NCBI GenBank assembly: GCA_020832905.1
Contig: JAJHRG010000001.1
Coordinates: 64,809-128,808, forward strand
DNA length: 64,000 nucleotides
Direction of reading: 5' to 3'
Origin: Thermoproteota archaeon
Lineage (GTDB): Archaea; Thermoproteota; Methanomethylicia; Methanomethylicales; Methanomethylicaceae
A program made the position numbers and the translations under genes. Shown piece by piece: positions 31,883 through 63,526 of this stretch. Below the pieces are notes generated by a model, which was not told the origin of the DNA, made no database searches, and worked only from the letters and a program-made list of their open reading frames with translations. Within the stretch, counting starts at the first letter, position 1. Each line of letters opens with the position of its first letter.

Positions 31883-31914
<32 letters not shown>

Positions 31915-32168: not shown

Positions 32169-32199
32169 GCTCTAAGAAAAAATCCTAATTTTTGTTAGT

Positions 32200-32216
32200 T
32201 AACCTTATAAAATTTT
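32200..32216 (+). promoter_or_regulatory. TATA-box-like element (CTTATAAAATT) about 25 bp upstream of the RNase P RNA
   Basis: AT-rich element at the canonical archaeal -26 distance from the first nucleotide of the 32234 helix. Confidence 0.4.
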
Positions 32217-32233
32217 TATTCTTAAGTTCTTTT

Positions 32234-32566
32234 GCCAGGAGTAAGCAGCGAGTTGGTGGGTAGCCGACGGGCCCCATATAGGGGCCTGAGGAAACTCCAC
32301 CCTCCACGTAGGACCGCAGCGCCGTGAGGCGCAGGGGGAGACCCCTGCTCTTGGCACAGAAACGAGACGTGCGGAAGTGGATGTCTATGATGTGAAGAGT
32401 TATCTCTTCACTGAGTATACTTCCGCTTTCGTTGAAACGGCCAAGCTGCGGGGAGAAAGGGCAAATAGGAACCGATGAGGCCTACGCGAGGTTCGGGTAG
32501 CCCGAATAGTCGAATGCTACCTAAAACAGAAGGTGGGTTACGGCCAACACGCTGCTTACTCCTGGC
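32234..32566 (+). ncRNA. rnpB: RNase P RNA (archaeal type A-like)
   Basis: GC-rich 333-nt structured RNA closed by a 17-bp terminal helix (GCCAGGAGUAAGCAGCG / CGCUGCUUACUCCUGGC). P4 strands: GAGGAAACUCCACCCUCC (with the conserved bulged U) and ACAGAAGGUGGGUUACGG, which covaries against the E. coli ACAGAACCCGGCUUA. There is also GGGCAAAUAGGAACC, a P11/12-like CAAAUAGG. Confidence 0.8.
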
Positions 32567-36438: not shown

Positions 36439-36530
36439 AGCGGGGTGGGGTAGCCAGGTTATCCCGCGGGGCTCATATGTCCCGCTGGGAAACCCCGAGA
36501 TCGGTGGTTCAAATCCACCCCCCGCTACCA
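36439..36530 (+). tRNA. Initiator tRNA-Met (CAU) with a short intron of about 13 nt at 37/38; CCA is encoded
   Basis: AGCGGGG-UG-GGGU-AGCCAGGUUA-UCCC-GCGGGG-CUCAUA[UGUCCCGCUGGGA]A-CCCCGAG-AUC-GGUGG-UUCAAAU-CCACC-CCCCGCU-A-CCA. The A1:U72 pair and the three G:C pairs in the anticodon stem are archaeal initiator hallmarks. Confidence 0.75.
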
Positions 36531-39307: not shown

Positions 39308-41617
39308 ATGCAGAAAAGAGCAAAGATTTACGTACATGGCATGGTTCAAGGAGTTGGTTTTAGACCTTTTGTATATAATCTTGCACATATATATCAGCTT
39401 AAAGGTCAGGTTTCTAATTTAGGTGATGCTAGTGTTGAAATAATTGTAGAAGGAGAATATGAAAAAATAAAATTCTTTATAAATGATTTAGTAAGTAAGA
39501 AACCAAAAATTGCTAGAATTGATAGTATTGATGTAATTTGGGAAGAACCAACTAATGAATTTAAAGATTTTAAAATAGCAAAAAGTAATATTAAGAAAAT
39601 AAGTTTAAGCTCTGTGATCCCAGTAGATATTGGTATATGTGATTTATGTATCACAGATATTTTTAGTAATACTAGATGGCATTACTATCCATTTACATGT
39701 TGTTCACACTGTGGACCAAGATTCACAATTTTATATTCCTTACCATACGATAGAGAAAATACTTCTATGGTAGATTTTCCTTTTTGTTCTTATTGTAAAT
39801 CAGAATATGAAAATCCTAATGATAGAAGATATGATGCACAAGGAACTACATGTCCAATATGTGGTCCAAAAATGTTTCTCTTAGATAATAATGGAAATAT
39901 TATTGATGATGAAGATCCTATAAGAATAGCAGCTTCTTTACTAAAAGAAGGTAAAATAATTGCAGTTAAAGGAATTGGAGGTTTTCATATAGCTGTTGAT
40001 GCAACAAATGAAGATTCTGTATTAGAACTTAGAAAAAGAAGAAGAAGACCAAATCAACCATTTGCAGTAATGTCAAAATCAATAAATGAAGTAAAAAAAT
40101 TTGCTATTGTTTCAAAGGAAGAAGAAGATTTACTTAAATCTCCATATAAGCCTATTGTTATTCTTAAAAAATCACCTTCATATAATTTAGCTGAATCAGT
40201 TTCTCCTGGCTTAGATACAGTAGGGGTTATGTTGCCATATACTGGTATACATCTTTTATTACTAGAATTTTTTGGAAAAGAAGCTTTAGTAATGACAAGT
40301 GGGAATTATCCAGGAAGACCTATTGTAATTGATAATGATCAAGCAATTTCAGAACTTAAAGAAATTGTTGATTTCTTTCTTGTACATAATAGAAAAATAG
40401 TAAATAGATGTGATGACTCTGTTATAAAATTTGTAGAAAATACTCCTACTTTTCTTAGAAGGTCAAGAGGTTATACTCCTACATATTTAACAATTCCATG
40501 GACAAATAATGAAAATATTATTTCTGTTGGAGGAGAATTTAATGTAACTGGATCTATTGCAATAAAAAATCGCATTATTACTACACAACATATCGGGGAT
40601 GTAAGTGATCTAGATACTCTTAATTATTTAATTAGTGCATTAAATTTTTTAATTAAGGTATATGATATTAAGTTTTTTTCAAAAATAGCTCATGATTTAA
40701 ATCCTAATTTCTATACTACAAGATATGCAAAAGAACTTTCAGAACACATATCAGCAAAAACTATTCAAGTTCAACATCATCATGCTCATATGACCTCATT
40801 AATGATTGAACATGGTTTATCTCAAGATACTGAAATTATATGTATTACTATTGATGGATTTGGTTATGGAGCTGATGGAATGGCATGGGGTGGAGAAATT
40901 CTATTTGGAGGATATTCTAAGTTTAATAGAGTAGCTCAACTTCGTTATCAGCCAATGCCAGGAGGAGATTTATGTGCTTATTATCCTGCAAGATTTCTTG
41001 CAGCTATTCTTTCAACAATAATGGAAGACTCAGAAATTTTTAATTTATTTGAAAAAAAGTATATTAAATATTTAAGATATGGTGAAGATGAATTAAACAT
41101 AGTATTAAAACAATCAAAAAAGCCAGGAATAATTCACTCCTCTAGTATTGGAAGACTTTTAGATGCAATTGCTGTATTACTAGAAGTGGGACATTATAGA
41201 AGTTATGAAGGAGAATTGCCAATGAAATTAGAAGCACTTGCTAATCATGGAAAACCAATTAATATTAATTTAAATTTACCAGTAAAAAAGCAAAATAATA
41301 CTTATATTATAGATACTTCAGAATTTATATTATCTATTATTGAAAATATGAAATATTATTCAAAAGCTGATTTAGCATATGAAATTCATAAAACTTTAGG
41401 ATTAACATTTGGTAAATTAGCATGTGAAATAAGTGATGAAGTAGGTTGTAATATTATTGGTGTTTCTGGTGGTGCTGCTGTTAATAGTTTATTAATTAAG
41501 TATATGAAAAGTGAAATAACTAAAAATAAGAAGAAGTTTTTGCAACACATAATTCTTCCACCTGGTGATGGAGGTATTTCTATAGGTCAAATTGCTGTTG
41601 CATTAAACTGTGAGTAA
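39308..41617 (+). CDS. hypF: [NiFe]-hydrogenase maturation carbamoyltransferase HypF
   Basis: Acylphosphatase domain (VHGMVQGVGFRPFVY). Two Zn-finger CxxC pairs. YrdC-like (KGIGGFHIAVDATN). C-terminal Kae1/carbamoyltransferase domain. 769 aa. Confidence 0.9.
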   Translation: MQKRAKIYVHGMVQGVGFRPFVYNLAHIYQLKGQVSNLGDASVEIIVEGEYEKIKFFINDLVSKKPKIARIDSIDVIWEEPTNEFKDFKIAKSNIKKISLSSVIPVDIGICDLCITDIFSNTRWHYYPFTCCSHCGPRFTILYSLPYDRENTSMVDFPFCSYCKSEYENPNDRRYDAQGTTCPICGPKMFLLDNNGNIIDDEDPIRIAASLLKEGKIIAVKGIGGFHIAVDATNEDSVLELRKRRRRPNQPFAVMSKSINEVKKFAIVSKEEEDLLKSPYKPIVILKKSPSYNLAESVSPGLDTVGVMLPYTGIHLLLLEFFGKEALVMTSGNYPGRPIVIDNDQAISELKEIVDFFLVHNRKIVNRCDDSVIKFVENTPTFLRRSRGYTPTYLTIPWTNNENIISVGGEFNVTGSIAIKNRIITTQHIGDVSDLDTLNYLISALNFLIKVYDIKFFSKIAHDLNPNFYTTRYAKELSEHISAKTIQVQHHHAHMTSLMIEHGLSQDTEIICITIDGFGYGADGMAWGGEILFGGYSKFNRVAQLRYQPMPGGDLCAYYPARFLAAILSTIMEDSEIFNLFEKKYIKYLRYGEDELNIVLKQSKKPGIIHSSSIGRLLDAIAVLLEVGHYRSYEGELPMKLEALANHGKPININLNLPVKKQNNTYIIDTSEFILSIIENMKYYSKADLAYEIHKTLGLTFGKLACEISDEVGCNIIGVSGGAAVNSLLIKYMKSEITKNKKKFLQHIILPPGDGGISIGQIAVALNCE

Positions 41618-46473: not shown

Positions 46474-47307
46474 GTGATTTATGTAAAGGATATAATGAAT
46501 AAAGATGTAGTGTATTTAGAGGTACCTGGTAATAGAAATGAATTTTTTAAAAAATTTATGGAGAAGAAAGTATCTGGTTTTCCAGTAGTAAAGAAAGGTA
46601 CAAAACAAATTATTGGAATAATTACAAGAGAAGATATATTAAAAAAAGGAGATGAAGAGCAAATTGCTCTTATTATGAATAAAAATGTTATAACAATTAC
46701 TCCAGAAACTCCTTTAGATGATTGTATAAAAATAATGAAAGAAAAAGGTTATAGAAGAATTCCTGTTGTTGTAGATAAAGAACTTGTTGGAATAATAACT
46801 ATAGGTGATATAGTGCATAAATTACTAGTAAAATCAACATCTAATCTAAAAGTTAAAGATTTAATGTCTCCAATAGGATTAGTTTGTTGGGATAATACTC
46901 CTTTAAATATAGTTGGAAAAATAATGATAATGACAAAATCACATGTAGCTTTATCTATTAATCGTAATGAACAAATTAATGGAATATTATCTTTAACTGA
47001 TTTAATAAAATATAGTGAAATTAGAATAGAGGAAAAAAAGACAGTTTTAAAAGCAGGATCTGAAGGACAAGAATGGGATTGGGAAACTACTTCTTTTCTC
47101 TTAATTACTAAGGGAAAAATAACCTTACCAGAAATACCTTTATATCAGGCAATATCTACTCCATGTATTACTATACTCGAAAATGCTAGTGTAAGTGAAT
47201 GTGCCATAAAGATGAAAAAATATGATGTTGATCAACTAGTTGTAGTAAATGCAAAAAATGAAATTCAAGGAATTATTTTTGATAGAGACTTACTAAAATC
47301 ATTGTGA
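46474..47307 (+). CDS. CBS-domain protein (four tandem CBS motifs)
   Basis: Repeated I/V-x-x-P-V-V-D/K patterns and hydrophobic beta-alpha-beta units. Confidence 0.7.
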   Translation: MIYVKDIMNKDVVYLEVPGNRNEFFKKFMEKKVSGFPVVKKGTKQIIGIITREDILKKGDEEQIALIMNKNVITITPETPLDDCIKIMKEKGYRRIPVVVDKELVGIITIGDIVHKLLVKSTSNLKVKDLMSPIGLVCWDNTPLNIVGKIMIMTKSHVALSINRNEQINGILSLTDLIKYSEIRIEEKKTVLKAGSEGQEWDWETTSFLLITKGKITLPEIPLYQAISTPCITILENASVSECAIKMKKYDVDQLVVVNAKNEIQGIIFDRDLLKSL

Positions 47308-50300
47308 CATAAATTCTTCTAATGATATTATCCTTCTCTTATTCTTAATTAGATCGTTTAAACTTCTCTCAATAAGCTCTATTTCTTGTTTTATAAAGTT
47401 ATCAAGATTAAATTCCTTAGCAAGAGAGTATGAAATATTAAGATATTTACTTATATTTCCTTCATGAACAGATAATACTAATTCATTATTACACTTTATA
47501 CATCTTCCCTTTAATGGAATTCTCCTATATTTTGCACCACATCTTGTACATCTAAATTTTTGAGTAAGAAATGCTCTAAAATTACCTACTAAATCAGGTA
47601 TAAAATGATGTTTTAATAATCTTTCTGCTACATCTTTTGCATCAACAGCACGTATTTTTATTGCTAAATTAAGTTGCTTCCTTACTTTTTCTTCCATATT
47701 TCTTATTTTATCATATTCTGTAACTAAAGGACCAGTATTTATATCATGATTATATATTGAAAAGTTTAAATTAATATACTGATCTTGTTTTCCTAATTTT
47801 TTCTTAACTATTTCTATAAACTTTAGAGCTTCACTTGGACTACTATATTCTTCACATAATGAATAAAATTCCAATGGTAGTCTTTCTACAACTTCAATAT
47901 TATGGCATTCATCATCTACTTCTGATGGGTCAATTATTACTGTTAATACTAATGGAGCATCCATTAATCCTCCTACTTTTTCTGGTAAGTAATGTCTAGA
48001 GAAATCTATTAATGCTTGTAATGCTAACATTATAGCATCTTCATCTCCATCACAATTTCTTCTCTTTGCAGCATGCCAAAATGGATGTGCATAACATACT
48101 GAGGCCTTCGTAAAGCCTATTATTCTACCTATAACTCCTGCAGAAGTATGAGGTGCTAATCCAATTACAAGATGACCTACTAAATCTTTATAACTATTAA
48201 GTCTATAATATGGTTCTAAACCATAAACCTCTTTTAAAAGTTCATCAACATAATTTGCTACTCTATATAAATACTTTGCACAACTTTCTGGTATTATAAT
48301 ATCTTGAACTTTAAGTTCTAATATCTGATCTTCACTTTTTAATTCATTACCTTTATAGTCTTTTGTATAGCCTAATTCTTTAAGTTTTTCTATACTTACT
48401 CCAATTTCTGATGGTTTAAAATGAGTTAAAGGAGCATTTGTTATATCGTATCTTATAGTTCCGTCTTTATAAATGAAAACTTTATGTTTACATCTTAGAA
48501 TTCCTTTTTCTATTATTTCTGGAATCTTTTTGGAATTACTTAGTCCTTTTACTCCTTTAATTACACTATCCTTACTAACACCAAATCTAGATAATTTTTC
48601 AAAGAAATCACTTATGGTAATTATTCTTTTATTATATGGAAGTATCTTAACTCCACATTTTTTACATACATCTTTTTCATAATAACTATTACAATTTTGA
48701 CAATAGTAAATTTGAATAGTTCGAATATTACATTTTCTACAAATATTTTCATAAGTTATCATATTACAGTTAGGACATTTTTTAAGTACAATTTCTACTT
48801 CTATCTCTCCTAATTGCATAGCTTTTACAATATTTCTTTGTGAACCACCTGCTAATCCTACTGGAAAGAGTACATGAACAGGTGGTTTCATGACCCTTTC
48901 TTTAGCTTTCTCAGGTCTTCCCATTCTAGCTCCTATAAAGGATCTTCCTTTAGCTTTTATTTTAATTCCACAACACTTACTAAGATATTCAATACTATCA
49001 CTAATTTTTTCATCATTAAGAATATTTTTAGAAGAAAATAAGGTCTCAATAATTTTTGAATCTTCAAAAGTTATTGTTTTTTCTTCTTTATTATATTTAT
49101 GTGGAATACATGCTTTTTCTAATATCTTCTTTAAGATTTCATTTTTTAAAGGAACCTTAGAATAATCCTTAACATTTCTTAACCATTCTTGAAGAACTTT
49201 TATTTCTTCAATACTTATATTCTCCCAAAAATAAGTGTATCTAGGATGTAATGGTATTTCTAATTTTTTGGAAATAATTAAAGCTTCTTCTTCATTTGGT
49301 TTATATAATAATGGATTATCAATAAATTCTTTTAATCGTTCTTTACTAATACCTAGTTCTATTGCTACTTTTTCAATATTTCCTTCTACTTTTCTTCTAA
49401 GTTCTTCTGCCCAAATTTCTTCACAATATCCTGGTGGCATTAATCTATGATTATTTTCTAAAAATTCTCCTATAGCAACTAACATATCTCCAAGAAAGAG
49501 GATTTCTTCAACATTATCTTTTACTTTTTTTGCAATTTCAACATTTTCTACTCTTATTACATCTCCATTCTTTAACTTAACAATTGGGCCTTCAATAGTA
49601 TCTACTGGTGTTATAGTTGCACTTTTTCCTGGTCTTTCTATTCTTAATTGAGTACCTATTGCAATAAAACTTTCTAATATAATCATAGTTGCTGGATTAA
49701 TTCCAACTGCAGCAAGTCCTGTATTTCTTGCACGGCCATATCTTAATCGAAATCCTCCAAATCTTGATGGATGTGAAAATATAGGTCTTCCTCCTACAAC
49801 ATCTACTAAATATTTATCATCAGGTTGGATTTTATTTTGATTTTCTTCATTTTCCTTAAATTTTATATTTAACCAACTCCAATCAAGTCCAATCTTTTCT
49901 ACAATCTTCTTTAGTTTTTCAGCTTTACCATAAATTCCATCATTTATAACTCTTAGAGCTCCTCCTCTTACATAATTTGTTTCTATTCTTTCAAGATTTC
50001 TATAAACTGAGACTTGATATTTATCTGTTGGAGGACCAGTTACCTCAACAGGTAAATAGCTTAGTATTCTCCTTAATTCATCATCTGATGGATGATACTG
50101 AAATCTTCCTACTTTTCTTTCATATAATCTTATTTCTTCAATAAATCTTCCTATTTCTTCATTAGTGATCTTATATCTATCTAAATGAAGAAGAATTCTT
50201 ATATAATCACCAAATACAACAGTAAGTGCTTGTTCAGTACCACCTGCAGACCTCATAGGTCCTGCATAGTATATTGCAAGATACTTACTTCCATCAAAAT

Positions 50301-50685
50301 TTCTTTTGATTCTAACACTTTCTATTCCTTGTAATGGTGCAGCAGTAATTCCCTCTGTCATAATGGCTAATGCTGCTCTTAAAGCTTTATCAGCAGCTAC
50401 TTCATCATTAAATTTACCAAATTTACCATTTATTATATCTTCTATTATTTTAAATGCAACTTCTTCTCTTGAAAATTTCTCTTTTAATTCTCTAATTCTT
50501 TTTCCTATTCCACTAATTCCAATTAATCCCTCAACTCTTGCAGCTAAATCTTCAGCTTTATAAATTTCAACATAAGGTTCAGGATCAAGTCCTTTACTTC
50601 TTGCTTTATTTGCAATTTCATATAGTTTATTTACATGATTAATTATATCATAAAAGTATTTCTGAGTATTAGCATCACAAATCAT
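47299..50685 (-). CDS. polD: DNA polymerase II (PolD) large subunit DP2
   Basis: 1128 aa. Catalytic NCDGDEDA motif. Multiple Zn-binding CxxC clusters (CPNCN...CRKCN, CQNCN...CKKCG, CTRCG...CIKCN). No intein. Confidence 0.95.
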   Translation of the reverse strand: MICDANTQKYFYDIINHVNKLYEIANKARSKGLDPEPYVEIYKAEDLAARVEGLIGISGIGKRIRELKEKFSREEVAFKIIEDIINGKFGKFNDEVAADKALRAALAIMTEGITAAPLQGIESVRIKRNFDGSKYLAIYYAGPMRSAGGTEQALTVVFGDYIRILLHLDRYKITNEEIGRFIEEIRLYERKVGRFQYHPSDDELRRILSYLPVEVTGPPTDKYQVSVYRNLERIETNYVRGGALRVINDGIYGKAEKLKKIVEKIGLDWSWLNIKFKENEENQNKIQPDDKYLVDVVGGRPIFSHPSRFGGFRLRYGRARNTGLAAVGINPATMIILESFIAIGTQLRIERPGKSATITPVDTIEGPIVKLKNGDVIRVENVEIAKKVKDNVEEILFLGDMLVAIGEFLENNHRLMPPGYCEEIWAEELRRKVEGNIEKVAIELGISKERLKEFIDNPLLYKPNEEEALIISKKLEIPLHPRYTYFWENISIEEIKVLQEWLRNVKDYSKVPLKNEILKKILEKACIPHKYNKEEKTITFEDSKIIETLFSSKNILNDEKISDSIEYLSKCCGIKIKAKGRSFIGARMGRPEKAKERVMKPPVHVLFPVGLAGGSQRNIVKAMQLGEIEVEIVLKKCPNCNMITYENICRKCNIRTIQIYYCQNCNSYYEKDVCKKCGVKILPYNKRIITISDFFEKLSRFGVSKDSVIKGVKGLSNSKKIPEIIEKGILRCKHKVFIYKDGTIRYDITNAPLTHFKPSEIGVSIEKLKELGYTKDYKGNELKSEDQILELKVQDIIIPESCAKYLYRVANYVDELLKEVYGLEPYYRLNSYKDLVGHLVIGLAPHTSAGVIGRIIGFTKASVCYAHPFWHAAKRRNCDGDEDAIMLALQALIDFSRHYLPEKVGGLMDAPLVLTVIIDPSEVDDECHNIEVVERLPLEFYSLCEEYSSPSEALKFIEIVKKKLGKQDQYINLNFSIYNHDINTGPLVTEYDKIRNMEEKVRKQLNLAIKIRAVDAKDVAERLLKHHFIPDLVGNFRAFLTQKFRCTRCGAKYRRIPLKGRCIKCNNELVLSVHEGNISKYLNISYSLAKEFNLDNFIKQEIELIERSLNDLIKNKRRIISLEEFMSQ

Positions 50686-53765: not shown

Positions 53766-55136
53766 TTGAAATTTGATGTTGGAATAGTTGGTGCAGGACC
53801 TGCTGGAATGTTTGCAGCATATGAAATTGCAAATAAAAGTAAGCTCTCTGTAGTAGTAATAGATCAGGGCTATGATGTAGAAAAACGAGTATGTCCAGTA
53901 CAAAACTATAAAAAATGTACAAAATGTTCAATTTGTAGTATAATGAGTGGAGTAGGTGGAGCAGGTACATTATCTAGTGGTTTATTAAATCTTAGACCAG
54001 ATATAGGAGGTAATCTTCTAGAATTTGTTGATGAAAATGAAGCTAATAACTTAGTAAATTATGTGGACTCTATTTTTCTAAAATATGGTGCACCTGAGCA
54101 TGTATTTCGTGGAGATACTGAGGAAGCTATGGAATTACAAAGAAAAGCAGCATCTGTTGGAATTAAATTTATACCAATTACTCAACGTCATATAGGAACT
54201 GATAGAGCTCCTTTGGTTATAAAGAATTTTAAAAAAGATTTAGAAAAATTAAATGTAAAATTTCTTCTTGAAACTAAAGTAGAAGATGTAAGAAAAAATC
54301 AAATAATATTAGAAGATCATAGAATTATTGAATGTAAGTACATATTATTAGCTCCAGGAAGAGTTGGAGCAGATTGGGCTAAAAAATTAGCTCAAAGACT
54401 TGGTATACCAACAAAACCAGAACCTATAGATGTTGGTGTTAGAGTTGAAGTACCAGCATTTGTAATGGATCCTGTAATTGCTGTAAGTAGAGATCCAAAA
54501 TTTCACATATATACTGATACATATGATGATTTTGTAAGAACATTTTGTGTAAATCATCGTGGTTTTGTTGTTAAAGAAGTATATGATAGTTTTGTTGGTG
54601 TTAATGGACACTCAATGGCTGGTAAGCTCTCAGAAAATAGCAATTTTGCTCTTCTTGTAAGAATAACTCTTACAGAACCTGTTGAGGATACCACTGCCTA
54701 TGGTATGTCTATTGTACAACAAGCTACTATACTTGGTGGTGGAGAACCATTAATACAAAGATTAGGTGATTTAAGAATGGGTAGAAGATCTACATGGAAT
54801 AGAATATCTCATAGTCATATAGTTCCTACTCTAAAATCTGCTACTCCAGGTGATATAGCTATGGCAATGCCACATAGAATTGTTTCTGATATACTTGAAG
54901 CTTTAGAAAAACTAGATGAAATAATACCTGGTGTAGCCTCATCTTCTACATTACTTTATGCACCTGAAATAAAATTCTCAGCAAATAGATTTCAAGTTAA
55001 TAAGAACTTTGAAACACCTGTTGAAAATATATTTGTTGCAGGAGATGGTGTAGGACTTTCTCGAGGTCTAGTGTGTGCAGCTGCAACAGGTATTCTTGCT
55101 GCACGAGGTATTCTTAGAAAAGAAGGAATTATTTAA
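53766..55136 (+). CDS. FAD-dependent oxidoreductase (COG2509-like) with a Cys cluster
   Basis: N-terminal GIVGAGPAGMFAAYE (the Rossmann dinucleotide-binding GxGxxG). CPVQNYKKCTKCSICS. The C-terminal GDGVGLSRG is a flavoprotein signature. Confidence 0.7.
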   Translation: MKFDVGIVGAGPAGMFAAYEIANKSKLSVVVIDQGYDVEKRVCPVQNYKKCTKCSICSIMSGVGGAGTLSSGLLNLRPDIGGNLLEFVDENEANNLVNYVDSIFLKYGAPEHVFRGDTEEAMELQRKAASVGIKFIPITQRHIGTDRAPLVIKNFKKDLEKLNVKFLLETKVEDVRKNQIILEDHRIIECKYILLAPGRVGADWAKKLAQRLGIPTKPEPIDVGVRVEVPAFVMDPVIAVSRDPKFHIYTDTYDDFVRTFCVNHRGFVVKEVYDSFVGVNGHSMAGKLSENSNFALLVRITLTEPVEDTTAYGMSIVQQATILGGGEPLIQRLGDLRMGRRSTWNRISHSHIVPTLKSATPGDIAMAMPHRIVSDILEALEKLDEIIPGVASSSTLLYAPEIKFSANRFQVNKNFETPVENIFVAGDGVGLSRGLVCAAATGILAARGILRKEGII

Positions 55137-55148
55137 TTACTTTTGTTA

Positions 55149-55223
55149 TGGGGCTGCCCGGATTTGAACCGGGGTCACGAGGGCCCGAGCCTCGCAGTCT
55201 AGACCAAGCTAGCCTACAGCCCC
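55149..55223 (-). tRNA. tRNA-Pro (anticodon CGG)
   Basis: Minus strand: GGGGCUG...CGAGG-CUCGGGC-CCUCG-UGAC-CCCGG-UUCAAAU-CCGGG-CAGCCCC-A. The D-arm is atypical (CUAG self-complementary segments). Confidence 0.7.
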
Positions 55224-55296
55224 ATTTTCTATATATCTTTTATATATTCTTTCTACCTATATTTTTGTATATATTCCTAATTTATGGTGTAGTACG

Positions 55297-55995
55297 TTGG
55301 AAACAACTAAGGAATATCTACTAAAGAGGATAATAGGTGAAATAGTACTATCTGATATACCTGGTGAAGCTATGAGACGTTGGAGAGAGATTTTTGGAAT
55401 TTCTCAATTAGAATTAGCAAAAAAAATGAAAGTTTCTCCTTCTGTAATAAGTGATTATGAAGGAGGTAGACGAAAATCTCCAGGCTCTATATTTATAAAA
55501 CGCTATGTTAGTTCACTTATAGAAATAGATGAAGAAAAAGGAGGTAAAATATTAGAAAGATTTTCAGTAATATCAAAATCTCGTTCTGATGCTATTTTGG
55601 ATATTTGTGAATTTTCATCACCAATTGTATTAGAGAAGTTAGTAAAAGCAGTTGATGGTGAATTTATTGTATATGAAGAACTCTCATCAAAATATATTTT
55701 AGGATATACTGTAGTAGATAGTATAAAAGCTATTATGTCTATGTCAGGTTCAGATTTTATTCAGCTTATTGGTTCTACATCTGAAAGAGCAATAATATTT
55801 ACTAATACTTCTACTGGAAGATCTCCAATGGTGGCTATTCGTGTAGCACCTATTAAGCCATCAGCAGTTATACTACATGGCATAAGGAAATTAGATAAAT
55901 TAGCTGTAGAATTAGCTAAAATAGAAAGAATTCCTTTAATTATATCAAAAAAAGAAAATATTAAGGAACTTATTGATTCATTACATAGGATATAA
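55297..55995 (+). CDS. XRE-family HTH transcriptional regulator with an uncharacterised C-terminal domain
   Basis: ISQLELAKKMKVSPSVISDYEGG (HTH_XRE). The remainder has no assignable fold. Confidence 0.6.
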   Translation: METTKEYLLKRIIGEIVLSDIPGEAMRRWREIFGISQLELAKKMKVSPSVISDYEGGRRKSPGSIFIKRYVSSLIEIDEEKGGKILERFSVISKSRSDAILDICEFSSPIVLEKLVKAVDGEFIVYEELSSKYILGYTVVDSIKAIMSMSGSDFIQLIGSTSERAIIFTNTSTGRSPMVAIRVAPIKPSAVILHGIRKLDKLAVELAKIERIPLIISKKENIKELIDSLHRI

Positions 55996-56044
55996 TATTT
56001 TCGTTTTTTGTCGATTATAAAAATAGTCAAAAAACGAAAATATT
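55995..56044. terminator. 16-bp perfect inverted repeat hairpin (ATATTTTCGTTTTTTG...CAAAAAACGAAAATAT) with T-runs; a terminator and/or operator between the XRE gene and the mevalonate-entry operon
   Basis: Exact reverse-complement arms separated by 18 nt. Oligo-T tracts on both strands. Confidence 0.5.
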
Positions 56045-56089
56045 ATATATCTACATTACTATAATTCTTAACACATATGTGGTGATAAC

Positions 56090-57151
56090 TTGAAGCCAAT
56101 AATAGATGTAGTTATATCTGGTTGGGGCTCATATATACCTATTTACAGACTTCCTGTTGAGGAAATTGCAAGAATTTGGGGCACATCAGTAGATCATATT
56201 AAACGTGAATTATTAATATACGAAAAATCTATTGCTGGAATTGATGAAGATGTTGCAACAATAGCTGTTGAAGCTGCAAAAAATTCTCTAAAAAGAGCAA
56301 AAATAAATCCTAGTGAACTTGGAGCAGTTTTTGTTGGAACTGAAACAAAGCCATATGCTGTAAAACCTACTGGTACTATAGTTGCTGAAGCAATAGGAGC
56401 AACTCCAAAAATATTAGCTGCTGATTTTGAATTTGCATGTAAAGCAGGAACGGAATGTCTTCAATGTTGTATAGCTCTTGTTGGATCAAATATGATAAAA
56501 TATGGAATGGCAATTGGTGCTGATGTAGCTGAAGGAGCACCTGCAGATCCACTAGAATATTCTGCAGGAAGTGGAGGTACTGCTATAATTGTTGGAAATA
56601 AAAATTATGAAAAAGAACCAGTAGCTCTACTTGAAGGTTCTGTATCTTATGTTACTGATACTCCTGATTTTTGGAGAAGACCAAAAGAAAGTTATCCTTC
56701 TCATGCTGAAGCTTTTACAGGAGATCCTGCTTATTTTAAACATACTATTTCTGCAACAAAATTACTAATGGAAGAACTTGGATTAAGACCTTCTGATTTC
56801 AAATATGCTGTTTTTCATCAGCCAAATGGAAAATTTCCATTAAGAGTAGCAAAGATGTTAGGTTTTAATAGAGAGCAAATAGAATGCGGACTTATTGTTC
56901 CATATGTAGGTAATCTTTATTCTGGCTCCTCATTAACTGGTTTTTCAGCTGTATTAGATATTGCAATGCCAGGTGATAGAATATTATTAGTAAGCTATGG
57001 TTCTGGTGCAGGAAGTGATGCTTTTAGTTTTATTGTACAAGATGGTATTATTGCTAAGAGAGATAATGCTCCAAAAGTTATGGATTATATTAAGAGAAAG
57101 AAAACAATTGATTATGCAATTTATTGTAAATTAAGAGGGAAAATTTGGTGA
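56090..57151 (+). CDS. Hydroxymethylglutaryl-CoA synthase (archaeal HMGCS)
   Basis: Thiolase-fold initiation-enzyme motifs: the active-site Cys in the [14 protein letters not shown] region, FHQPNGKFP and YVGNLYSGS. First gene of the conserved HMGCS/thiolase/DUF35 trio. Confidence 0.8.
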
Positions 57152-57155
57152 GATC

Positions 57156-58313
57156 ATGAGAAAAGTTGCTATAATAAGTTATGGAATGACAAAAGTTGAT
57201 AGACATTGGAATAAATCCTTAAGAGATTTATTTAGTGAAGCTACTTTAAAGGCTTTAAGTAGAGTTGATATACCAAAAGTAGATGCTATATTTGTTGGTA
57301 ATATGTGTGCATCAGATTTATGTGATCAAAATAATATAGGAACTTTAATTGCAGATCATATTGGCATGATTTCAATTCCTGCATATAGAATAGAAGCTGC
57401 ATGTGGCTCAGGAGGTGCTGCATTACACTGTGGTTTTATGGCAGTAAGCTCAGGAATATTTGATATTGTTATAGTTGGTGGTGTAGAAAAGCTTACTGAT
57501 GGTACTGGGAAAAAAGTAACACTTTCTCTTGGAAAAGCAGCAGATTTTGAATATGAAGTTTTTTATGGAATTACTTTTGCAAGTTTAAATGCACTTATAA
57601 TGAGAAGATATATGGAAGTATATAAAGTACCAAGAGATGCTTTTGCTGATTTTGCTGTATTAATGCATAAAAATGGTGCAAAAAATCCTTATGCTCAATT
57701 ACAATTTGAAATTGATAGAGAAACTGTTTTAAAATCTGAAGATATCGCAGATCCAATAAAATTATATGATTGTTCTCCAATTGGTGATGGTGCAGCTGTT
57801 GTTATTCTTTGTCCATTAGAAGATGCTTCAAAATATAGTGATAGTTTTGTTGAAATAGCTGGAATAGGAAGTGCAACAGATACCATTGATATTGCATCAA
57901 GAGAAGATTTATTATTATTTAAATCAACTCTTATAGCAGCTAATAATGCTTATAAAATGGCAAAAGTTTCTCCTTCTGATATTGACTTAGTTGAAATACA
58001 TGATGCTTTTACTATAAATGCTGCATTATCTTTAGAAGCTTTAGGTTTTTCTAAAAGAGGTGAATTTGATAAACTTCTTTATGATGGTGCTTTTGAACCA
58101 GATGGAATAATACCAGTAAATCTAAGTGGCGGTTTAAAATCAAGAGGACATCCTGTTGGTGCTACTGGAGTTTATCAAGTAGCTGAAATTACAATGCAAT
58201 TATTAGGAGAAGCTGGAAAAAATCAATTAAAAAATGCTGAAATTGGTTTAGCTCAAAATATGGCTGGTGTTGCTTCTAATTCATTTGTAACTATATTAAG
58301 GAGGTATAAGTGA
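57156..58313 (+). CDS. Acetoacetyl-CoA thiolase (SCP-x-type archaeal thiolase)
   Basis: Thiolase fold with the nucleophilic Cys (GNMCASD) and C-terminal catalytic His/Cys regions (GHPVGATG). Confidence 0.8.
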   Translation: MRKVAIISYGMTKVDRHWNKSLRDLFSEATLKALSRVDIPKVDAIFVGNMCASDLCDQNNIGTLIADHIGMISIPAYRIEAACGSGGAALHCGFMAVSSGIFDIVIVGGVEKLTDGTGKKVTLSLGKAADFEYEVFYGITFASLNALIMRRYMEVYKVPRDAFADFAVLMHKNGAKNPYAQLQFEIDRETVLKSEDIADPIKLYDCSPIGDGAAVVILCPLEDASKYSDSFVEIAGIGSATDTIDIASREDLLLFKSTLIAANNAYKMAKVSPSDIDLVEIHDAFTINAALSLEALGFSKRGEFDKLLYDGAFEPDGIIPVNLSGGLKSRGHPVGATGVYQVAEITMQLLGEAGKNQLKNAEIGLAQNMAGVASNSFVTILRRYK

Positions 58314-58714
58314 TGTCTGTTCCAAGATATTGGAGATGTATACCTCAAAGAATAAAAATGGAAGCTCTAAAGTGTAAATCTTGTGGTAAAACAATTTATC
58401 CTCCTAGAGCAAGATGCATATATTGTGGAGGAAATGACTTTGAAACTTATGTAATACCAGAAAAAGGGCGACTAATTTCATTTAGTATTATTCGCCATGC
58501 ACCAATTGGCTTTGAACATACTACACCATATGTTGTTGGAATAGTAGAATTTGAAAATGGTTTAAGAATATCTTCTCAAATTACTGATGTTGATATAAAT
58601 GAACTAAAAATTGGAATGGAAGTAGAACAGGTTTTTAGAAAAGTAACTGAAGATGGCAAATCAGGAATAATACAATATGCTATAAAATTTAGACCAATTT
58701 TTCAAAATATTTAA
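58310..58714 (+). CDS. DUF35 OB-fold/zinc-ribbon scaffold protein of the thiolase-HMGCS complex
   Basis: CKSCGKTIYPPRARCIYCGG rubredoxin-like ribbon followed by an OB fold. Translationally coupled to the thiolase gene. Confidence 0.8.
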   Translation: MMSVPRYWRCIPQRIKMEALKCKSCGKTIYPPRARCIYCGGNDFETYVIPEKGRLISFSIIRHAPIGFEHTTPYVVGIVEFENGLRISSQITDVDINELKIGMEVEQVFRKVTEDGKSGIIQYAIKFRPIFQNI

Positions 58715-58739
58715 TTATTCTCTATTTTTCTATTTCTTT

Positions 58740-61022
58740 TTGTTGGTGAAAAAATTGCGAAAAGAAGATTCATTAGAATCAGTTTTGTCATCAATCTCAA
58801 ATAAAATCAGAATAGAGATTTTAAAACTAATAAATAGAGAAGGTCCACTTTCATTTACTGAAATTATGGAAAAATTACAAATGGATCCAAAAATACATGC
58901 TGGAAAATTTGGTTATCATCTTAAAATGCTAAATGAAGCTGGATTAATTGCATCAGATGAATCTACTGGAAAATATTATTTAACATCATTAGGTCAGGAA
59001 GTTTCAAATTTTATATACAATATTGAAGATTTTGTAAATAAGAAGAAAAGCGAAATGCTAGTAAGAACTTCAAGTTTAACAATAGAACCATTTGATAGGA
59101 AAAAAATTGTAGAAGCACTAGTTCGTGAAGCTAATATGCCAAGAAGATTAGCTGATAGTATATCAAAAGAGGCTGAAGAAAGATTAAAGAAATCACAAAT
59201 AAAGTATCTAACTGCTGCACTAATAAGAGAATTTGTAAATGCTATTCTTTTGGAAAAAGGACTTGAAGAATATAGACATGTTCTAACAAGACTTGGACAA
59301 CCTGTTTATGATGTTACAATTACAATAAAAAATACAGCAAAACTTGGAGATCCTTCACCAGAAATAATACACTCTATTGCTGGTAATTCTGTACTTGAAG
59401 AGTATATGCTATTAAAAGTTCTTCCTAGGACTATTGCAGATGCACATTTATGTGGTATGATTCATTTAAATAATGCTAATTATTGGGTTTTAAGACCTGC
59501 AAATATTTTTCATGATATAAGACTAATATTAAATGATAAAATATCCATAAATGATTTTGTTCTTCCATATCCTAATAAGCCTATAACTTTTAAAGAAGCT
59601 TTATTTATGGTAAATGCCTTATTAAAGCAAACTATGAGTTATGTATCTGTAGCTCAATCAATTCCATTTTTTAATATTTTTTTAGCTCCATTTGCTAAAG
59701 GAGTAGATGAGAAAGAAATTAAGAAATTGTTTAGAGAGTTTATTTTTAATTTAAATCTAATATTAGGTTGTCATATTCCAAAAGTTTCTTTTGAACTTGA
59801 ATTTGGAATACCTGATTTCTTAGAGAATGTAAAATGTATTGGAGTAGATGGAAAGCAGTATACTTATGGTGATTTTTTTGATGAATCTATTAGAATATAT
59901 AATATACTAATTGAAGTTTTATCTGAAACAGATGGTATTTCAAAACCATTATTAAATCCAGCTTTATTCATAAAGATTAGAAAAAAAGGTAAATTACTTG
60001 ATAAGTTTTATGAAATACTAGTAAGAACATGTCAATTAGCAAGAAAATGGGGTAATGTATATTTTATAAATCAGGAAATACCATGGCAAACTGAAAATGT
60101 TTCCTATAATTTAGATTTATCAAGAGTTGATTCTATAAGTAATTGGGAATATGATACCATAAGAGTTGGTGTATTAGATAATGTTACAATAAATTTACCT
60201 AGAATTGCTTATGAAGCAAAAGGTGATGATGAGCGTTTAAAAGAAAAATTATATGAAATTATGGAAATTGCAATAGAAGCATTAAATATAAAGAAACAAG
60301 TAATGGAGGAAATGATATTTATAGATGGTATAATTCCACTATTTAAAAAGAATGTAAATGGAAGTAGCTACTTTAGGTTAAAGACATCTCCAGGCATAAT
60401 AAGTTATGTTGGTCTTTTTGAAGCATTAAAGTATCATACTGGTAATAGTATTTCAGAGGATAATAGTGCACTTAAACTTGCAAAAGATTTAATATCAATA
60501 ATAGCAGATTGTTGTAGTAAAGCATCTATAAGAGTTCTTCCTTCTAGTATGGTTTCTGAACCTGTTAGTAAAAGATTATTAAATCTAGATATTAAGTATG
60601 GATACATTAAACCTAAGGATATTCTATATTATACTGAATGTTCTAATCTTCCATTATATTTAGCTATAGAGCTTAAGACTAGATTAAAAATAGAAGAAGA
60701 ATTTCAAAAGCTAACTAAAGGAGGTCATTTATTTGATTTTAGACTTGAAGAACCATTTCCTACAGAAGAAGTATTAGCTAATTATACAAAAAGAATAATA
60801 GAGACAACTCAACTTGGCATATTTACATTTACTAGAAGTTATACATATTGTTGGAAATGTAAAACTATAAGCTATGGAACTCATATTAGATGTCCTAATT
60901 GTGGTTATGATGGAGATAAATTAGCAGTATATACTAAGGTATATGGTAGAAATAAACCATCTATATTCTGGAATCAAGAAGAAAAAGACTTCATAGCAAT
61001 TTCAAAATCATTTATTTTGTAA
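58740..61022 (+). CDS. Class III (anaerobic) ribonucleotide reductase-like protein with an N-terminal winged-helix domain and ATP-cone
   Basis: wHTH (LSFTEIMEKL...GYHLKMLNEAGLI). ATP-cone (TIEPFDRKKIVEALVREANMPRRLADSISKEAEERL). A barrel segment TINLPRIAYEAKGD reminiscent of NrdD. C-terminal CWKC...CPNCG ribbon. There is no clear RxxGY glycyl-radical motif. Confidence 0.5.
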   Translation: MLVKKLRKEDSLESVLSSISNKIRIEILKLINREGPLSFTEIMEKLQMDPKIHAGKFGYHLKMLNEAGLIASDESTGKYYLTSLGQEVSNFIYNIEDFVNKKKSEMLVRTSSLTIEPFDRKKIVEALVREANMPRRLADSISKEAEERLKKSQIKYLTAALIREFVNAILLEKGLEEYRHVLTRLGQPVYDVTITIKNTAKLGDPSPEIIHSIAGNSVLEEYMLLKVLPRTIADAHLCGMIHLNNANYWVLRPANIFHDIRLILNDKISINDFVLPYPNKPITFKEALFMVNALLKQTMSYVSVAQSIPFFNIFLAPFAKGVDEKEIKKLFREFIFNLNLILGCHIPKVSFELEFGIPDFLENVKCIGVDGKQYTYGDFFDESIRIYNILIEVLSETDGISKPLLNPALFIKIRKKGKLLDKFYEILVRTCQLARKWGNVYFINQEIPWQTENVSYNLDLSRVDSISNWEYDTIRVGVLDNVTINLPRIAYEAKGDDERLKEKLYEIMEIAIEALNIKKQVMEEMIFIDGIIPLFKKNVNGSSYFRLKTSPGIISYVGLFEALKYHTGNSISEDNSALKLAKDLISIIADCCSKASIRVLPSSMVSEPVSKRLLNLDIKYGYIKPKDILYYTECSNLPLYLAIELKTRLKIEEEFQKLTKGGHLFDFRLEEPFPTEEVLANYTKRIIETTQLGIFTFTRSYTYCWKCKTISYGTHIRCPNCGYDGDKLAVYTKVYGRNKPSIFWNQEEKDFIAISKSFIL

Positions 61023-61023
61023 A

Positions 61024-61356
61024 TTATTTTGAAGTAAGTAATATTATAGCTTGAGCAATATCTCCTTTTGTAGCTTCTAGTGCTTTTCTAGCTTCTTCAA
61101 AACTTCTTCCTGTTTGTGCAGCTACTAATTGTATATCTTCTTCAGGAATTTCAATTTTCTCTTCTTCTTTTTCTTCTCCAATTACTTGATAGATTTTTTG
61201 TCCTCCTATTTTCATAATCATAACATGTGGATTCTTTATTGTGATTTTCTTATCTTTTGTTATGAATATTACTTCTTCAACTCCTTGTATTTCTTCTACT
61301 TCCATTCCCATTTTTTGCATTAATCTTCTAGCTTCTCTTGGACTAATTTTCTTCAT
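61024..61356 (-). CDS. nac: Nascent polypeptide-associated complex protein (NAC alpha, with a UBA domain)
   Basis: NAC domain (KKITIKNPHVMIMKIGGQKIYQVIG) and the C-terminal UBA-like GRSFEEARKALEATKGDIAQAI. Confidence 0.85.
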   Translation of the reverse strand: MKKISPREARRLMQKMGMEVEEIQGVEEVIFITKDKKITIKNPHVMIMKIGGQKIYQVIGEEKEEEKIEIPEEDIQLVAAQTGRSFEEARKALEATKGDIAQAIILLTSK

Positions 61357-61837
61357 CTACACCACTCCTCACTTTTACTGCAATTCCATTTTTAAATCGC
61401 ATCATTTCACGCCCACTTAGTAGAGATTTTCCTACAGCAATAACATTTCCTTTTGAATCTACTATAATTACTTCTTCTCCTGGTCTTATTTCTTCATCAC
61501 AAATTAATACATGTTTTGAAAATAAATTTCTTCCTTTTTTTAAAAATTCTATAGCCTCATCTTTTACACATACTCTATATTTTGGATATGGTAATGCTAA
61601 AATAAGACGTTTTGCACCTTCTATACTTAATGCTAAATAACCATCATTTGTTCTTAAAGTTGCTAGTAATTTTCCATTATGATATATATTCTTTATTTTT
61701 CCTGTTCTTTTAGATCTTATAACCATTACTTCTTCTGGAAAAAGAATTTGCCCACATCCTTTTCCAAATTGAAGATCTGCAATTGCTCTTATTTTTATTA
61801 ATTCATCTTTTGTTATATTACTAAGCATAAATTCCAC
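61343..61837 (-). CDS. PUA-domain RNA-binding protein
   Basis: The C-terminal pseudobarrel pattern PGEEVIIVDSKGNVIAVGKSLLSGREM is typical of PUA. Confidence 0.55.
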   Translation of the reverse strand: MEFMLSNITKDELIKIRAIADLQFGKGCGQILFPEEVMVIRSKRTGKIKNIYHNGKLLATLRTNDGYLALSIEGAKRLILALPYPKYRVCVKDEAIEFLKKGRNLFSKHVLICDEEIRPGEEVIIVDSKGNVIAVGKSLLSGREMMRFKNGIAVKVRSGVDEEN

Positions 61838-62984
61838 TTGATAATACTTTTCCTTTACTTTTTCTTAAGATTTTTTCTATTGCCTTAAGGAAATCTTCTT
61901 TTATTACATATTCTCTATTATCTCTTATTGCAAACATTCCTGCTTCAGTACATATTGCCTTAATATCTGCACCTGTTGCTCCTTCAGTTATTTTGGCTAA
62001 CTCTTTGGCTAATTCTTTTATATCCTCTTTTATATTCATTTTTGATATGTATATCTTAAATATTGCTTCTCTTCCTGTTAAATTTGGAAGAGGTACTTCT
62101 ATTATTCTATCAAATCTTCCTGGTCTTAATAATGCAGGATCTAATAAGTCTATTCTATTTGTTGCAGCTATAATCTTTACATCTCCTCTAGGATTAAATC
62201 CATCAAGTTCACTTAATAATTGTAATAGTGTTCTATGGACTTCTCTTTCACCACTTGTACTAATATCTGTTCTTTTTCCTCCTATGGCATCTATTTCATC
62301 TATAAAAACAATTGATGGTGCTTTCATTCTTGCAAATTGAAATAATTCTCTAACAAGTCTAGCACCTTCCCCAATATATTTTTGAACAAGCTCAGAAGCA
62401 ACAACTTTTATAAATGTTGCTTTTGTTTGACTTGCTACTGCTTTTGCTAATAATGTTTTACCACAACCAGGTGGACCATATAATAATACTCCTTTTGGTG
62501 GATCAATTCCTATTTTCTCAAATAACTGTGGCTTAAGTAATGGTAGTTCTATAAGCTCTCTTATTTCCCTAATTTGTTCATCTAATCCTCCTATATCATT
62601 ATAACTTACATTAGGAGACTCAATTACCTCCATCACTTTAATATATGTATCTAATTGATCTGGTAAAACTTCTACAACTGCAAAATTTCTTTGACTTAAA
62701 GCTACTCTTTTTCCTACAGCTAATTTCTTAATATCTACATTTCTTGAAACATTAACTATAAATGATGGTCCTGTAGAACTTTTTACAATTACTCTTCCAT
62801 CTTCTAGTATATCACTAATATATCCTTCTATATATGGAGGAGTTGTTAATCTTTCTATTTCTTCTCTTAAAAATTGAATTTCACGTAATAATCTTTCTCT
62901 CTCATAATACCAATCTCTTCTTTCAGCTTCTAAATCTAATATTCTTTGTTCTAATTTTTTTAATGTATTATCTTCAGAACTCAT
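61821..62984 (-). CDS. pan: Proteasome-activating nucleotidase (AAA+ ATPase)
   Basis: N-terminal coiled coil. Walker A GPPGCGKTLLAKAVA. Walker B IVFIDEIDA. The second region of homology. Confidence 0.9.
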   Translation of the reverse strand: MSSEDNTLKKLEQRILDLEAERRDWYYERERLLREIQFLREEIERLTTPPYIEGYISDILEDGRVIVKSSTGPSFIVNVSRNVDIKKLAVGKRVALSQRNFAVVEVLPDQLDTYIKVMEVIESPNVSYNDIGGLDEQIREIRELIELPLLKPQLFEKIGIDPPKGVLLYGPPGCGKTLLAKAVASQTKATFIKVVASELVQKYIGEGARLVRELFQFARMKAPSIVFIDEIDAIGGKRTDISTSGEREVHRTLLQLLSELDGFNPRGDVKIIAATNRIDLLDPALLRPGRFDRIIEVPLPNLTGREAIFKIYISKMNIKEDIKELAKELAKITEGATGADIKAICTEAGMFAIRDNREYVIKEDFLKAIEKILRKSKGKVLSSGIYA

Positions 62985-63028
62985 TTTTACCCCAATATTT
63001 ATTTATTACTGAAAATAATTAATAAACA

Positions 63029-63526
63029 GTGCTTTTTATGAATTGCGAAATATGTGGAAGAAAAATTAATAATCCAATAAGAATTGAAATTGATAAATCT
63101 ATACTAAATGTATGTAGAGATTGTTCAAAATTTGGTACAATAGTAACTGAAAGGAAAATTAGTAAACCAAAGCAAATATCAAAACCAATTACTACTAATT
63201 TAAAGAAAGAAATTGATACAGAAGAAGAAATAGTAGAAAACTTTGGAGAAATAATAAGGAAAAGAAGAGAGGAATTAAATATTACAAGAGAAGAATTAGC
63301 AAAGAAATTAGGAGAAAAAGAATCTGTTATTAGAAGAATAGAAAATTGTGAAATTTATCCTCCACATGATTTACTAGTAAAAATAGAAAAATTATTAAAA
63401 ATTTCATTAAGAAGAAAAATTGAAAAAATTACTGAAGTAAACATTCCTAATATAAATTTAACACTAGGAGATATAGCTATAGTAAAAGAAGGAAAGAAGA
63501 AAAATAGTGGGCCGAGCCGGACTTGA
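63029..63526 (+). CDS. Multiprotein bridging factor 1 homologue (Zn ribbon plus HTH_XRE)
   Basis: N-terminal CEICGRKI...CRDCSKFG ribbon. The C-terminal HTH LNITREELAKKLGEKESVIRRIE. The 3' end overlaps tRNA-Val on the opposite strand. Confidence 0.8.
   Translation: MLFMNCEICGRKINNPIRIEIDKSILNVCRDCSKFGTIVTERKISKPKQISKPITTNLKKEIDTEEEIVENFGEIIRKRREELNITREELAKKLGEKESVIRRIENCEIYPPHDLLVKIEKLLKISLRRKIEKITEVNIPNINLTLGDIAIVKEGKKKNSGPSRT

Follow-up and report, generated by a model that had tools for sequence, protein, structure and literature searches.

Does a protein that has a class III ribonucleotide reductase (RNR) body, a DNA-binding domain at its N-terminus and no canonical glycyl-radical loop still reduce nucleotides? 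The question is raised by an open reading frame (ORF) of 760 amino acids (aa) at positions 58740 to 61022 of a 64,000-nucleotide (nt) stretch of a Thermoproteota archaeon of the Methanomethylicaceae (contig JAJHRG010000001.1, positions 64,809 to 128,808, forward strand). The whole stretch is called the window. The original prediction described the ORF as an RNR-like protein and left open whether it is a divergent or non-glycyl-radical enzyme or a regulatory derivative. The 760-aa protein is an NrdD homologue by fold but not an RNR by chemistry. It is very probably catalytically dead, and we consider it likely that this NrdD-like protein acts as a nucleotide-sensing transcription regulator of nrd genes. 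The features on which the argument depends are as follows.

58740..61022, + strand: whole gene, winged helix-turn-helix (wHTH), ATP-cone-like domain, catalytically dead NrdD body and zinc ribbon; 760 aa, intact ORF
58779..59012, + strand: N-terminal ArsR-like wHTH, residues 14-91 (Pfam, PDB profiles, AlphaFold2 model)
59055..59285, + strand: ATP-cone-like domain, residues 106-182, 'VRTS' variant (Pfam ATP-cone PF03477)
59349..60980, + strand: NrdD-type 10-stranded alpha/beta barrel body, residues 204-747 (Pfam NRDD 238 bits, AlphaFold2 model, Foldseek)
59502..59504, + strand: Asn255 in place of the betaA active-site cysteine (alignments to canonical NrdDs)
60117..60125, + strand: Leu460-Ser461-Arg462, remnant of the finger-loop M[GC]CR (hidden Markov model (HMM) alignments, column counts)
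60186..60227, + strand: TINLPRIAYEAKGD, retained NrdD signature strand and helix, residues 483-496 (alignments)
60849..60902, + strand: CxxC...CxxC zinc ribbon, CWKC...CPNC, with C704, C707, C718 and C721 (family alignment)
60933..60953, + strand: TKVYGRN, degenerate remnant of the glycyl-radical loop, residues 732-738 (alignments)
58681..58691, + strand: TATA-like TATAAAATTTA in the 3' end of the DUF35 gene, ~50 nt 5' of the start (candidate, sequence reading)

The protein has the fold of a class III RNR

The domains proposed for the ORF, an ArsR-like wHTH, an ATP-cone, an NrdD-like barrel and a CxxC ribbon, were recovered by Pfam. The N-terminal domain matches DUF7347 (36.6 bits, cutoff 27.6), HTH_5 (31.3 bits, cutoff 22) and HTH_20 (31.2 bits, cutoff 27), and its PDB profile matches are HlyU, CadC and ArsR. 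Both of the HMM searches that had been suggested as a check gave matches above the Pfam cutoffs, NRDD with 238 bits and the ATP-cone with 34.4 bits against 25.8 (residues 106-178). The strings quoted in support of the prediction, TINLPRIAYEAKGD, CWKC...CPNC and TKVYGRN, are all present. The domain order is wHTH, cone, NRDD and zinc ribbon, and no NrdR family match was obtained for the 760-aa protein. Depending on the gene caller, translation starts at TTG 58740 (760 aa), GTG 58746 (758 aa) or TTG 58755 (755 aa). A protein from a 'Candidatus Verstraetearchaeota' (Methanomethylicota) metagenome-assembled genome (P0001) is 100% identical in the 755-aa form.

An AlphaFold2 model was built from 62 sequences of the protein and its relatives, which together are called the family (predicted local distance difference test score 87, predicted template modelling score 0.77). 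The wHTH consists of helices at residues 22-34, 39-45 and 50-66 followed by a wing at 70-81. The predicted recognition helix carries DAG[KR]F[GA]YHL, which is nearly invariant in the family and across phyla. Residues 1-100 contain no cysteine, so the domain is not that of a metal-sensing ArsR. The ATP-cone-like domain is modelled as a beta-hairpin with helices, and the K-R dyad of the canonical V-x-K-R-D-G hairpin is replaced by V108-R-T-S111.

The top Foldseek matches in the PDB are all class III RNRs, from P. copri, S. thermophilus, T. maritima and T4 (E 2e-25 to 2e-17; template modelling score to the target about 0.64-0.73). RNRs of classes I and II and other glycyl-radical enzymes rank far behind. 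A class II enzyme (NrdJ) or another glycyl-radical enzyme was ruled out since PDB sequence and fold searches strongly favour class III. The class III affiliation, for which a better match to NrdJ had been named as the alternative, was thus maintained. The protein misses the cutoff of the NCBIfam NrdD equivalog TIGR02487 (222.4 bits versus 326.35); the canonical NrdDs encoded beside family genes at three other loci score 559 (L009), 521 (L010) and 531 bits (L038).

Catalytic residues are lost throughout the family

Catalytic positions were compared in an alignment of 119 full-length family members and in a second one that combined 41 of them with 40 canonical archaeal NrdDs and the NrdD of E. 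coli. The betaA cysteine is conserved in all known RNRs. At this position (E. coli C175, T4 C79, T. maritima C125) all 40 canonical archaeal proteins have cysteine, as against none of the 119 family members, where glutamate (54), aspartate (27), asparagine (23), threonine (6) and other residues are found. The 760-aa protein has Asn255.

The thiyl-radical cysteine lies in the finger-loop motif MGCR or MCCR (PMC9669993). Cysteine occupies this position in 40/40 canonical NrdDs; in the family it is replaced by serine in 53 members, threonine in 8, glutamate in 8 and leucine in 7, and retained in 34. Two independent HMM alignments, to the 'mgcR' of S. thermophilus NrdD and to E. coli C384, place Ser461 in the thiyl column, and the adjoining Arg462 of the L-S-R remnant is invariant in the family. 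Loss of T4 Asn311 was initially counted as well and then dropped, because canonical archaeal NrdDs also lack this residue and the R-x-G-S context is common to both groups.

Replacement of the canonical glycyl-radical loop by TKVYGRN, as originally proposed, was also seen in the alignments. Gly736 aligns with the radical glycine, and the next residue is arginine instead of the obligatory tyrosine. The glycine column itself varies in the family (G58/A45/N8/S3, n=119) and is followed by lysine or arginine, never by tyrosine; glycine and tyrosine are each present in 40/40 canonical archaeal NrdDs. The residue alignment that had been called for therefore finds no canonical Gly-Tyr context, serine at the thiyl position (Ser461) and asparagine at the betaA position (Asn255). 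Finger-loop cysteine and glycine occur together in just 3/119 members, which also lack the betaA cysteine, and no member of the 119 has all three catalytic residues. Overall, 94 of the 152 columns that are invariant in canonical NrdDs are lost, including 11/11 in the C-terminal glycine loop. Only the ribbon cysteines C704, C707, C718 and C721 are kept in 119/119 members, and they are the only invariant cysteines of the family.

Because the three positions vary among orthologues, they cannot be catalytic, and known RNR chemistry is excluded. Loss of the thiyl and betaA cysteines, which the original prediction had missed, is a stronger argument than the glycine loop. The protein fails four tests of an NrdD (glycine loop, thiyl cysteine, betaA cysteine and equivalog score) and should not be annotated as an RNR.

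The family is widespread and under constraint

With one genome scanned for each GTDB species, relatives were encoded in at least 543 species genomes as intact ORFs of ~750-770 aa. The matches listed include Methanomethylicia, Bathyarchaeia, Culexmicrobium and Hecatellales, and among the Asgard archaea Prometheo/Loki-, Odin-, Baldr-, Jord-, Frey- and Atabeyarchaeia. Complete genomes with a family gene include those of Methanosuratincola verstraetei LCB70 (CP186953.1), the cultured M. petrocarbonis LWZ-6 (CP130488.1), Atabeyarchaeia (CP147779, CP147780) and Bathyarchaeota (CP070828, CP070759, CP070730).

Among the 62 diverse sequences 49 columns are invariant and ~100 more are nearly so, and mean column identity in the family is 53-56%. 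The ATP-cone-like domain is the most conserved part (0.78), ahead of the alphaA/alphaB region (0.66), which forms the dimer and specificity site of NrdD, and of the wHTH (0.63). Conservation drops to 0.42 in the former glycine loop and 0.24 in the tail. This pattern fits a putative sensor and DNA-binding protein and is the reverse of that in the enzyme. N485-L-P-R within TINLPRIAYEAKGD is invariant in the family and in canonical NrdDs alike. The strands of the former active site also carry family-specific invariant polar residues (H258, D259, Q306, N312, N444, Q450, R462, N485 and K518).

Annotation pipelines label family proteins 'anaerobic ribonucleoside-triphosphate reductase'. With such labels, a class III RNR can be wrongly assigned to a genome, and both RNR phylogenies and the metabolic reconstruction of Asgard and TACK archaea can be distorted. 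Full-text searches, which took in comprehensive papers on RNR phylogeny and extensions (PMC9531940, PMC9669993, PMC3019208, PMC2795772 and PMC4493059) but excluded most subscription journals, found no account of NrdDs that form an HTH-fused or catalytically dead clade; an earlier mention elsewhere is therefore possible.

Canonical nrdD genes adjoin the family gene in Bathyarchaeia

A homologue search seeded with a canonical NrdD brought up only the relatives nearest to it, mostly from Bathyarchaeia. At 24/80 species loci, all from Bathyarchaeia, a small redoxin gene and a canonical NRDD gene directly follow the family gene on its own strand, and the same arrangement occurs at L009 and L010, two metagenome loci. 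This redoxin belongs to the glutaredoxins (PF00462) or is a CPKC thioredoxin-like protein. The neighbouring NrdD is fully canonical, with an SMCCR or SQCCR finger loop, an RVVGY or RITGY radical loop, and scores of 518-646 bits with NRDD and 521-559 bits with TIGR02487. These genomes therefore own a real NrdD that is linked to a dead paralogue. The L010 NrdD has the same 'VRTS' ATP-cone and the same 'YLSAPLIRELV...LLERGLE' helix as the family, which suggests that the family originated when a member of that archaeal NrdD lineage was duplicated.

Among the canonical archaeal NrdDs P0186-P0201, several (from Archaeoglobales and other lineages) have a length of 1137-1172 aa and contain intein/LAGLIDADG domains (PF14528, PF14890, PF05204) inside the NRDD body.

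The claim that no NrdG activase lies near the gene was sustained: no ORF of at least 90 aa in the 64-kb window contains the radical-SAM motif CxxxCxxC. The large ORFs of the window (RpoB, HypF, DUF2070, PolD DP2 and others) include no other RNR. At the orthologous locus L001, a radical-SAM gene ~8 kb downstream was considered as NrdG and rejected, as it encodes a SPASM-type TIGR04084 protein.

The family gene lies in an old syntenic block. Its upstream part encodes an FAD-dependent protein, an HTH_3 protein, HMG-CoA synthase (HMGCS), a thiolase and DUF35. Downstream of the family gene are grx/trx and canonical nrdD where present, then pyrB(-)/pyrI(+), NAC(-), PUA(-), PAN(-) and MBF1(+). This gene order is kept across Methanomethylicia, Bathyarchaeia and Asgard archaea (window 53766-63526; loci L001-L092), and the NrdD-like gene persistently adjoins the mevalonate-pathway operon across these lineages. 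The HTH_3 protein of the window (232 aa, 55297-55995, + strand) is conserved 5' of the HMGCS operon in all of them; at Odin, Baldr and Culexmicrobium loci its gene lies 50-140 nt directly upstream of the NrdD-like gene. One contig labelled 'Candidatus Krumholzibacteriaceae bacterium' (L075, DATKLC010000012.1) has the NrdD-like gene followed by pyrB/pyrI, NAC, PUA and MBF1. This gene set is archaeal, and the contig is probably mis-binned.

The gap between DUF35 and the family gene is 25-90 nt in the window and at all Methanomethylicia and several Asgard loci. TATAAAATTTA, a candidate archaeal TATA box, could give the NrdD-like gene its own promoter. If it has none, the gene may be co-transcribed with the mevalonate-pathway genes.

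A candidate operator lies in the grx-nrdD promoter

The sequence TATACAGAATTTTATACA is conserved in the intergenic regions between the family gene and grx/nrdD, ~8-10 nt upstream of the TATA-like TCTAAAAATCTAAAATA. It consists of two TRTAYA hexamers spaced 12 bp from start to start; at some loci an inverted form, TATACA-N6-TGTATA, is found. A GAGGTG resembling a Shine-Dalgarno sequence and an ATG follow ~50 nt further downstream. A position weight matrix made from 17 sites was scanned over 1.3 Mb of loci with a threshold of 14 bits. Of 26 matches, 23 lie just downstream of a family gene, including the untrained loci L005, L041, L069 and L073. An exact 17-mer scan of metagenome contigs gave 80 loci, of which 23 are grx-nrdD promoters with shared flanks. 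The other 57 were considered as additional members of a regulon and rejected because they have no common flanks and look random.

On a Bathyarchaeota chromosome (L215) the motif lies ~125 nt upstream of a canonical nrdD that is away from the family gene, with a masked run of N nearby. It is absent from two nrdD promoters (L213; Archaeoglobus-like L214) of lineages in which no family gene is visible, a weak comparison since n=2 and the regions are AT-rich. In the window, TATACA-N6-TATACA with 2 mismatches occurs 35 times versus 20.6 expected, with no site that is intergenic or convincing, and the sole match to the weight matrix there falls inside a coding region. Circumstantially, these results suggest that TATACAGAATTTTATACA is a candidate operator of the family protein. 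Its position abutting the transcription factor B recognition element (BRE) and TATA box would fit activation as well as repression.

Another non-coding element, (A/G)TGTTAATTT, is also conserved and lies ~21 nt (~two helical turns) upstream of the TATACA motif. It is found at L038, L042, L055, L057, L087 and others and at L094-L168, where the 3' end of the NrdD-like ORF sometimes overlaps it.

Proposed function and alternatives

We propose that the family stems from a duplicated catalytic subunit of an archaeal class III RNR. Its ancestor would have been of the double-cysteine type that is linked to thioredoxin or glutaredoxin and has a 'VRTS' ATP-cone. A winged helix-turn-helix would then have been fused to the N-terminus and the radical and redox machinery lost, while the protein retained its NrdD fold together with the alphaA/alphaB region that forms the dimer, its ATP-cone-like domain and its zinc ribbon. 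Nucleotide reduction would have been abandoned, and the protein would have become a dimeric nucleotide-sensing transcription factor. Binding of a (d)NTP to the retained allosteric module or modules may reposition the two wHTH domains. The pair might then recognize the two TRTAYA hexamers 12 bp apart beside the BRE and TATA box of the grx-nrdD promoter; other promoters are probably targeted too. The outcome would be tuned expression of the real reductase by an archaeal functional analogue of bacterial NrdR. The domain architecture, the lost catalytic residues, purifying selection, the wide distribution and, in Bathyarchaeia, the adjoining canonical nrdD and the conserved motif in its promoter are observed; DNA binding, the ligand, the choice between activation and repression, and the targets in the Methanomethylicia genome are inferred.

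A broader version is possible rather than likely. The family may represent an ancient master regulator of dNTP supply, inherited vertically in Thermoproteota (Methanomethylicia and Bathyarchaeia) and Asgard archaea, in which a dead RNR would use its old allosteric sites to read the cellular (d)NTP pool and the fused wHTH to pass the signal on to transcription. It would then be the counterpart of NrdR that is missing from archaea and, among transcription factors, the first to derive from the catalytic subunit of an RNR.

Several observations weigh against a nucleotide-sensing regulator. The K-R phosphate-binding dyad of the ATP-cone is lost, which makes binding of ATP or dATP uncertain. Neither the window nor any of the Methanomethylicia and Asgard loci examined has an RNR gene within 8-10 kb of the family member. 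The motif was derived from related Bathyarchaeia alone and could belong to another factor, and TRTAYA-N6-TRTAYA is not enriched in the window (10 versus 10.5 expected). The wHTH could serve protein contacts rather than DNA. MAFFT shifts the finger loop by 8 residues relative to the HMM alignment, with no conserved cysteine in either placement. Finally, the invariant H258, D259, Q306, N312, N444, Q450, R462 and K518 could make a new active site instead of a sensor pocket.

The divergent or non-glycyl-radical RNR that the original prediction had favoured was not upheld. The full-length NrdD fold, the intact zinc ribbon, the retained NLPR and GG motifs and the glycine that aligns with the radical glycine in the 760-aa protein and about half of its orthologues are what a working class III enzyme with a divergent or alternative radical mechanism would have. 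An essential catalytic residue would be constant among orthologues, however, and here the finger-loop position varies among S, C, T, E and L, the glycine is alanine or asparagine in about half of the members, and the betaA cysteine is missing altogether. A canonical NrdD is encoded in tandem in Bathyarchaeia, the equivalog cutoff is missed and the window has no activase. We regard a working RNR as very unlikely. At the other extreme, loss of the catalytic residues and poor conservation of the C-terminal tail might indicate a decaying pseudogene or functionless paralogue. Intact ORFs with conserved synteny in at least 543 species genomes of Thermoproteota and Asgard archaea, and the invariant and nearly invariant columns (49 and ~100 in 62 diverse sequences), have effectively refuted this reading already, and we give it practically no weight.

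Two functional alternatives deserve more credit than these, and both are unlikely. The protein could be a non-catalytic partner of the true RNR, forming a heterodimer with NrdD or buffering an effector, with a wHTH that is incidental or makes protein contacts. Its best-conserved parts, alphaA/alphaB and the ATP-cone-like domain, resemble the adjacent canonical NrdD, and the two genes are in tandem in Bathyarchaeia. Against such a partner, the recognition helix is nearly invariant across phyla, as expected of DNA recognition, the family is kept in lineages without a nearby nrdD, and an operator-like motif is conserved in the adjacent promoter. Equally improbable is a neo-functionalized enzyme that carries out non-radical nucleotide chemistry in the old barrel and might be bifunctional like RbkR or BirA. 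The invariant residues on the former active-site strands, N485 among them, speak for it. Their constellation matches no known activity, ligand binding or fold stability would explain them equally well, and the partner enzymes in the conserved neighbourhood are limited to nrdD and grx. A regulatory pseudoenzyme, the other possibility raised at the outset, is the part of the original prediction that stands. Descent of the 'NrdR type' does not, because only the ATP-cone-like module is common to both and the putative DNA-binding domain is a wHTH rather than a zinc ribbon.

Surroundings of the window

The GC content of the window is ~27%, and its rRNA operon is GC-rich. The 16S-23S rRNA operon at 27175-32552 has a GC content of ~0.59-0.61 over a background of 0.24-0.33, as thermophiles typically do. 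Directly after the 23S gene comes RNase P RNA (32248-32552). The 16S match is 1684 nt long compared with 1478 nt in the model, which suggests an insertion or intron of ~200 nt. Two tRNA matches, 3678-3813 (- strand, 136 nt) and 36439-36527 (+ strand, 89 nt), are probably intron-containing genes, given their length.

A corrinoid uptake and salvage cluster occupies 17097-26317 (- strand). It encodes Peripla_BP_2/FecCD/ABC_tran proteins (BtuFCD-like), CbiZ(+PgpA), CbiB, a CobD-like aminotransferase with a Cys-rich domain, CobS and a MobA/CobY-like NTP transferase, and is interrupted by diphthamide-synthase-like and Asn-synthase-like genes. The cluster suggests that adenosylcobalamin is available for corrinoid methyltransferases, and it makes an adenosylcobalamin-dependent class II RNR elsewhere in the genome at least plausible. 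Housekeeping genes of the window include those for TiaS, the tRNA-Ile agmatidine synthetase (34742-36043, + strand), HypF (39308-41617, + strand) and PolD DP2 (47299-50685, - strand).

Comparison with known systems

The closest known proteins are NrdDs, especially the archaeal double-cysteine type similar to NrdD2/NrdD3. Fold, 'VRTS' cone, alphaA/alphaB, NLPR and GG motifs and the four-cysteine zinc ribbon are common to both, and by sequence the family is clearly homologous to, and probably a duplicate of, this archaeal lineage. It differs in lacking the betaA cysteine, the finger-loop cysteine or cysteines and the conserved Gly-Tyr loop, and in having an additional wHTH. That domain matches HTH_5 and HTH_20 as in ArsR/SmtB proteins (HlyU, CadC), but it has no metal-binding cysteine and is fused to a 660-aa sensor body instead of forming a stand-alone dimer of ~100 aa.

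Reuse of a pathway enzyme fold as an effector sensor, fused to a wHTH and often encoded beside the target genes, has parallels in NrtR, the Nudix-related regulator of NAD metabolism (PMC2330246), and in archaeal RbkR, a riboflavin kinase and regulator (PMC5397151). Fold and pathway are different in those proteins; the donor here is an RNR catalytic subunit. If the proposed function is correct, the family would show clearly how an essential radical enzyme became a pseudoenzyme sensor and kept its allosteric apparatus. We know of no report of an RNR catalytic subunit that serves as the sensor domain of a transcription factor.

NrdR is the RNR-specific repressor of bacteria and consists of a zinc ribbon and an ATP-cone in about 150 aa. 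To our knowledge it is essentially bacterial, and for this reason the transcriptional control of RNR in most archaea is not known. It has been reported in most bacteria and in only some archaea (PMC9110341). By analogy, the NrdD-like protein would follow the same logic, in which a cone-type nucleotide sensor and a DNA-binding domain act on paired boxes at nrd promoters. Homology is confined to the cone, however, and the putative DNA-binding domain is a wHTH instead of a zinc ribbon. The NrdD-like protein is also five times larger since it includes a whole dead RNR body, and the two TRTAYA hexamers of the candidate operator, set 12 bp apart, have no relation to NrdR boxes. As a wHTH protein that derives from an RNR, is widespread and is encoded beside nrdD, the NrdD-like protein is a testable candidate for a regulator, with a candidate operator and, in LWZ-6, a cultured host.

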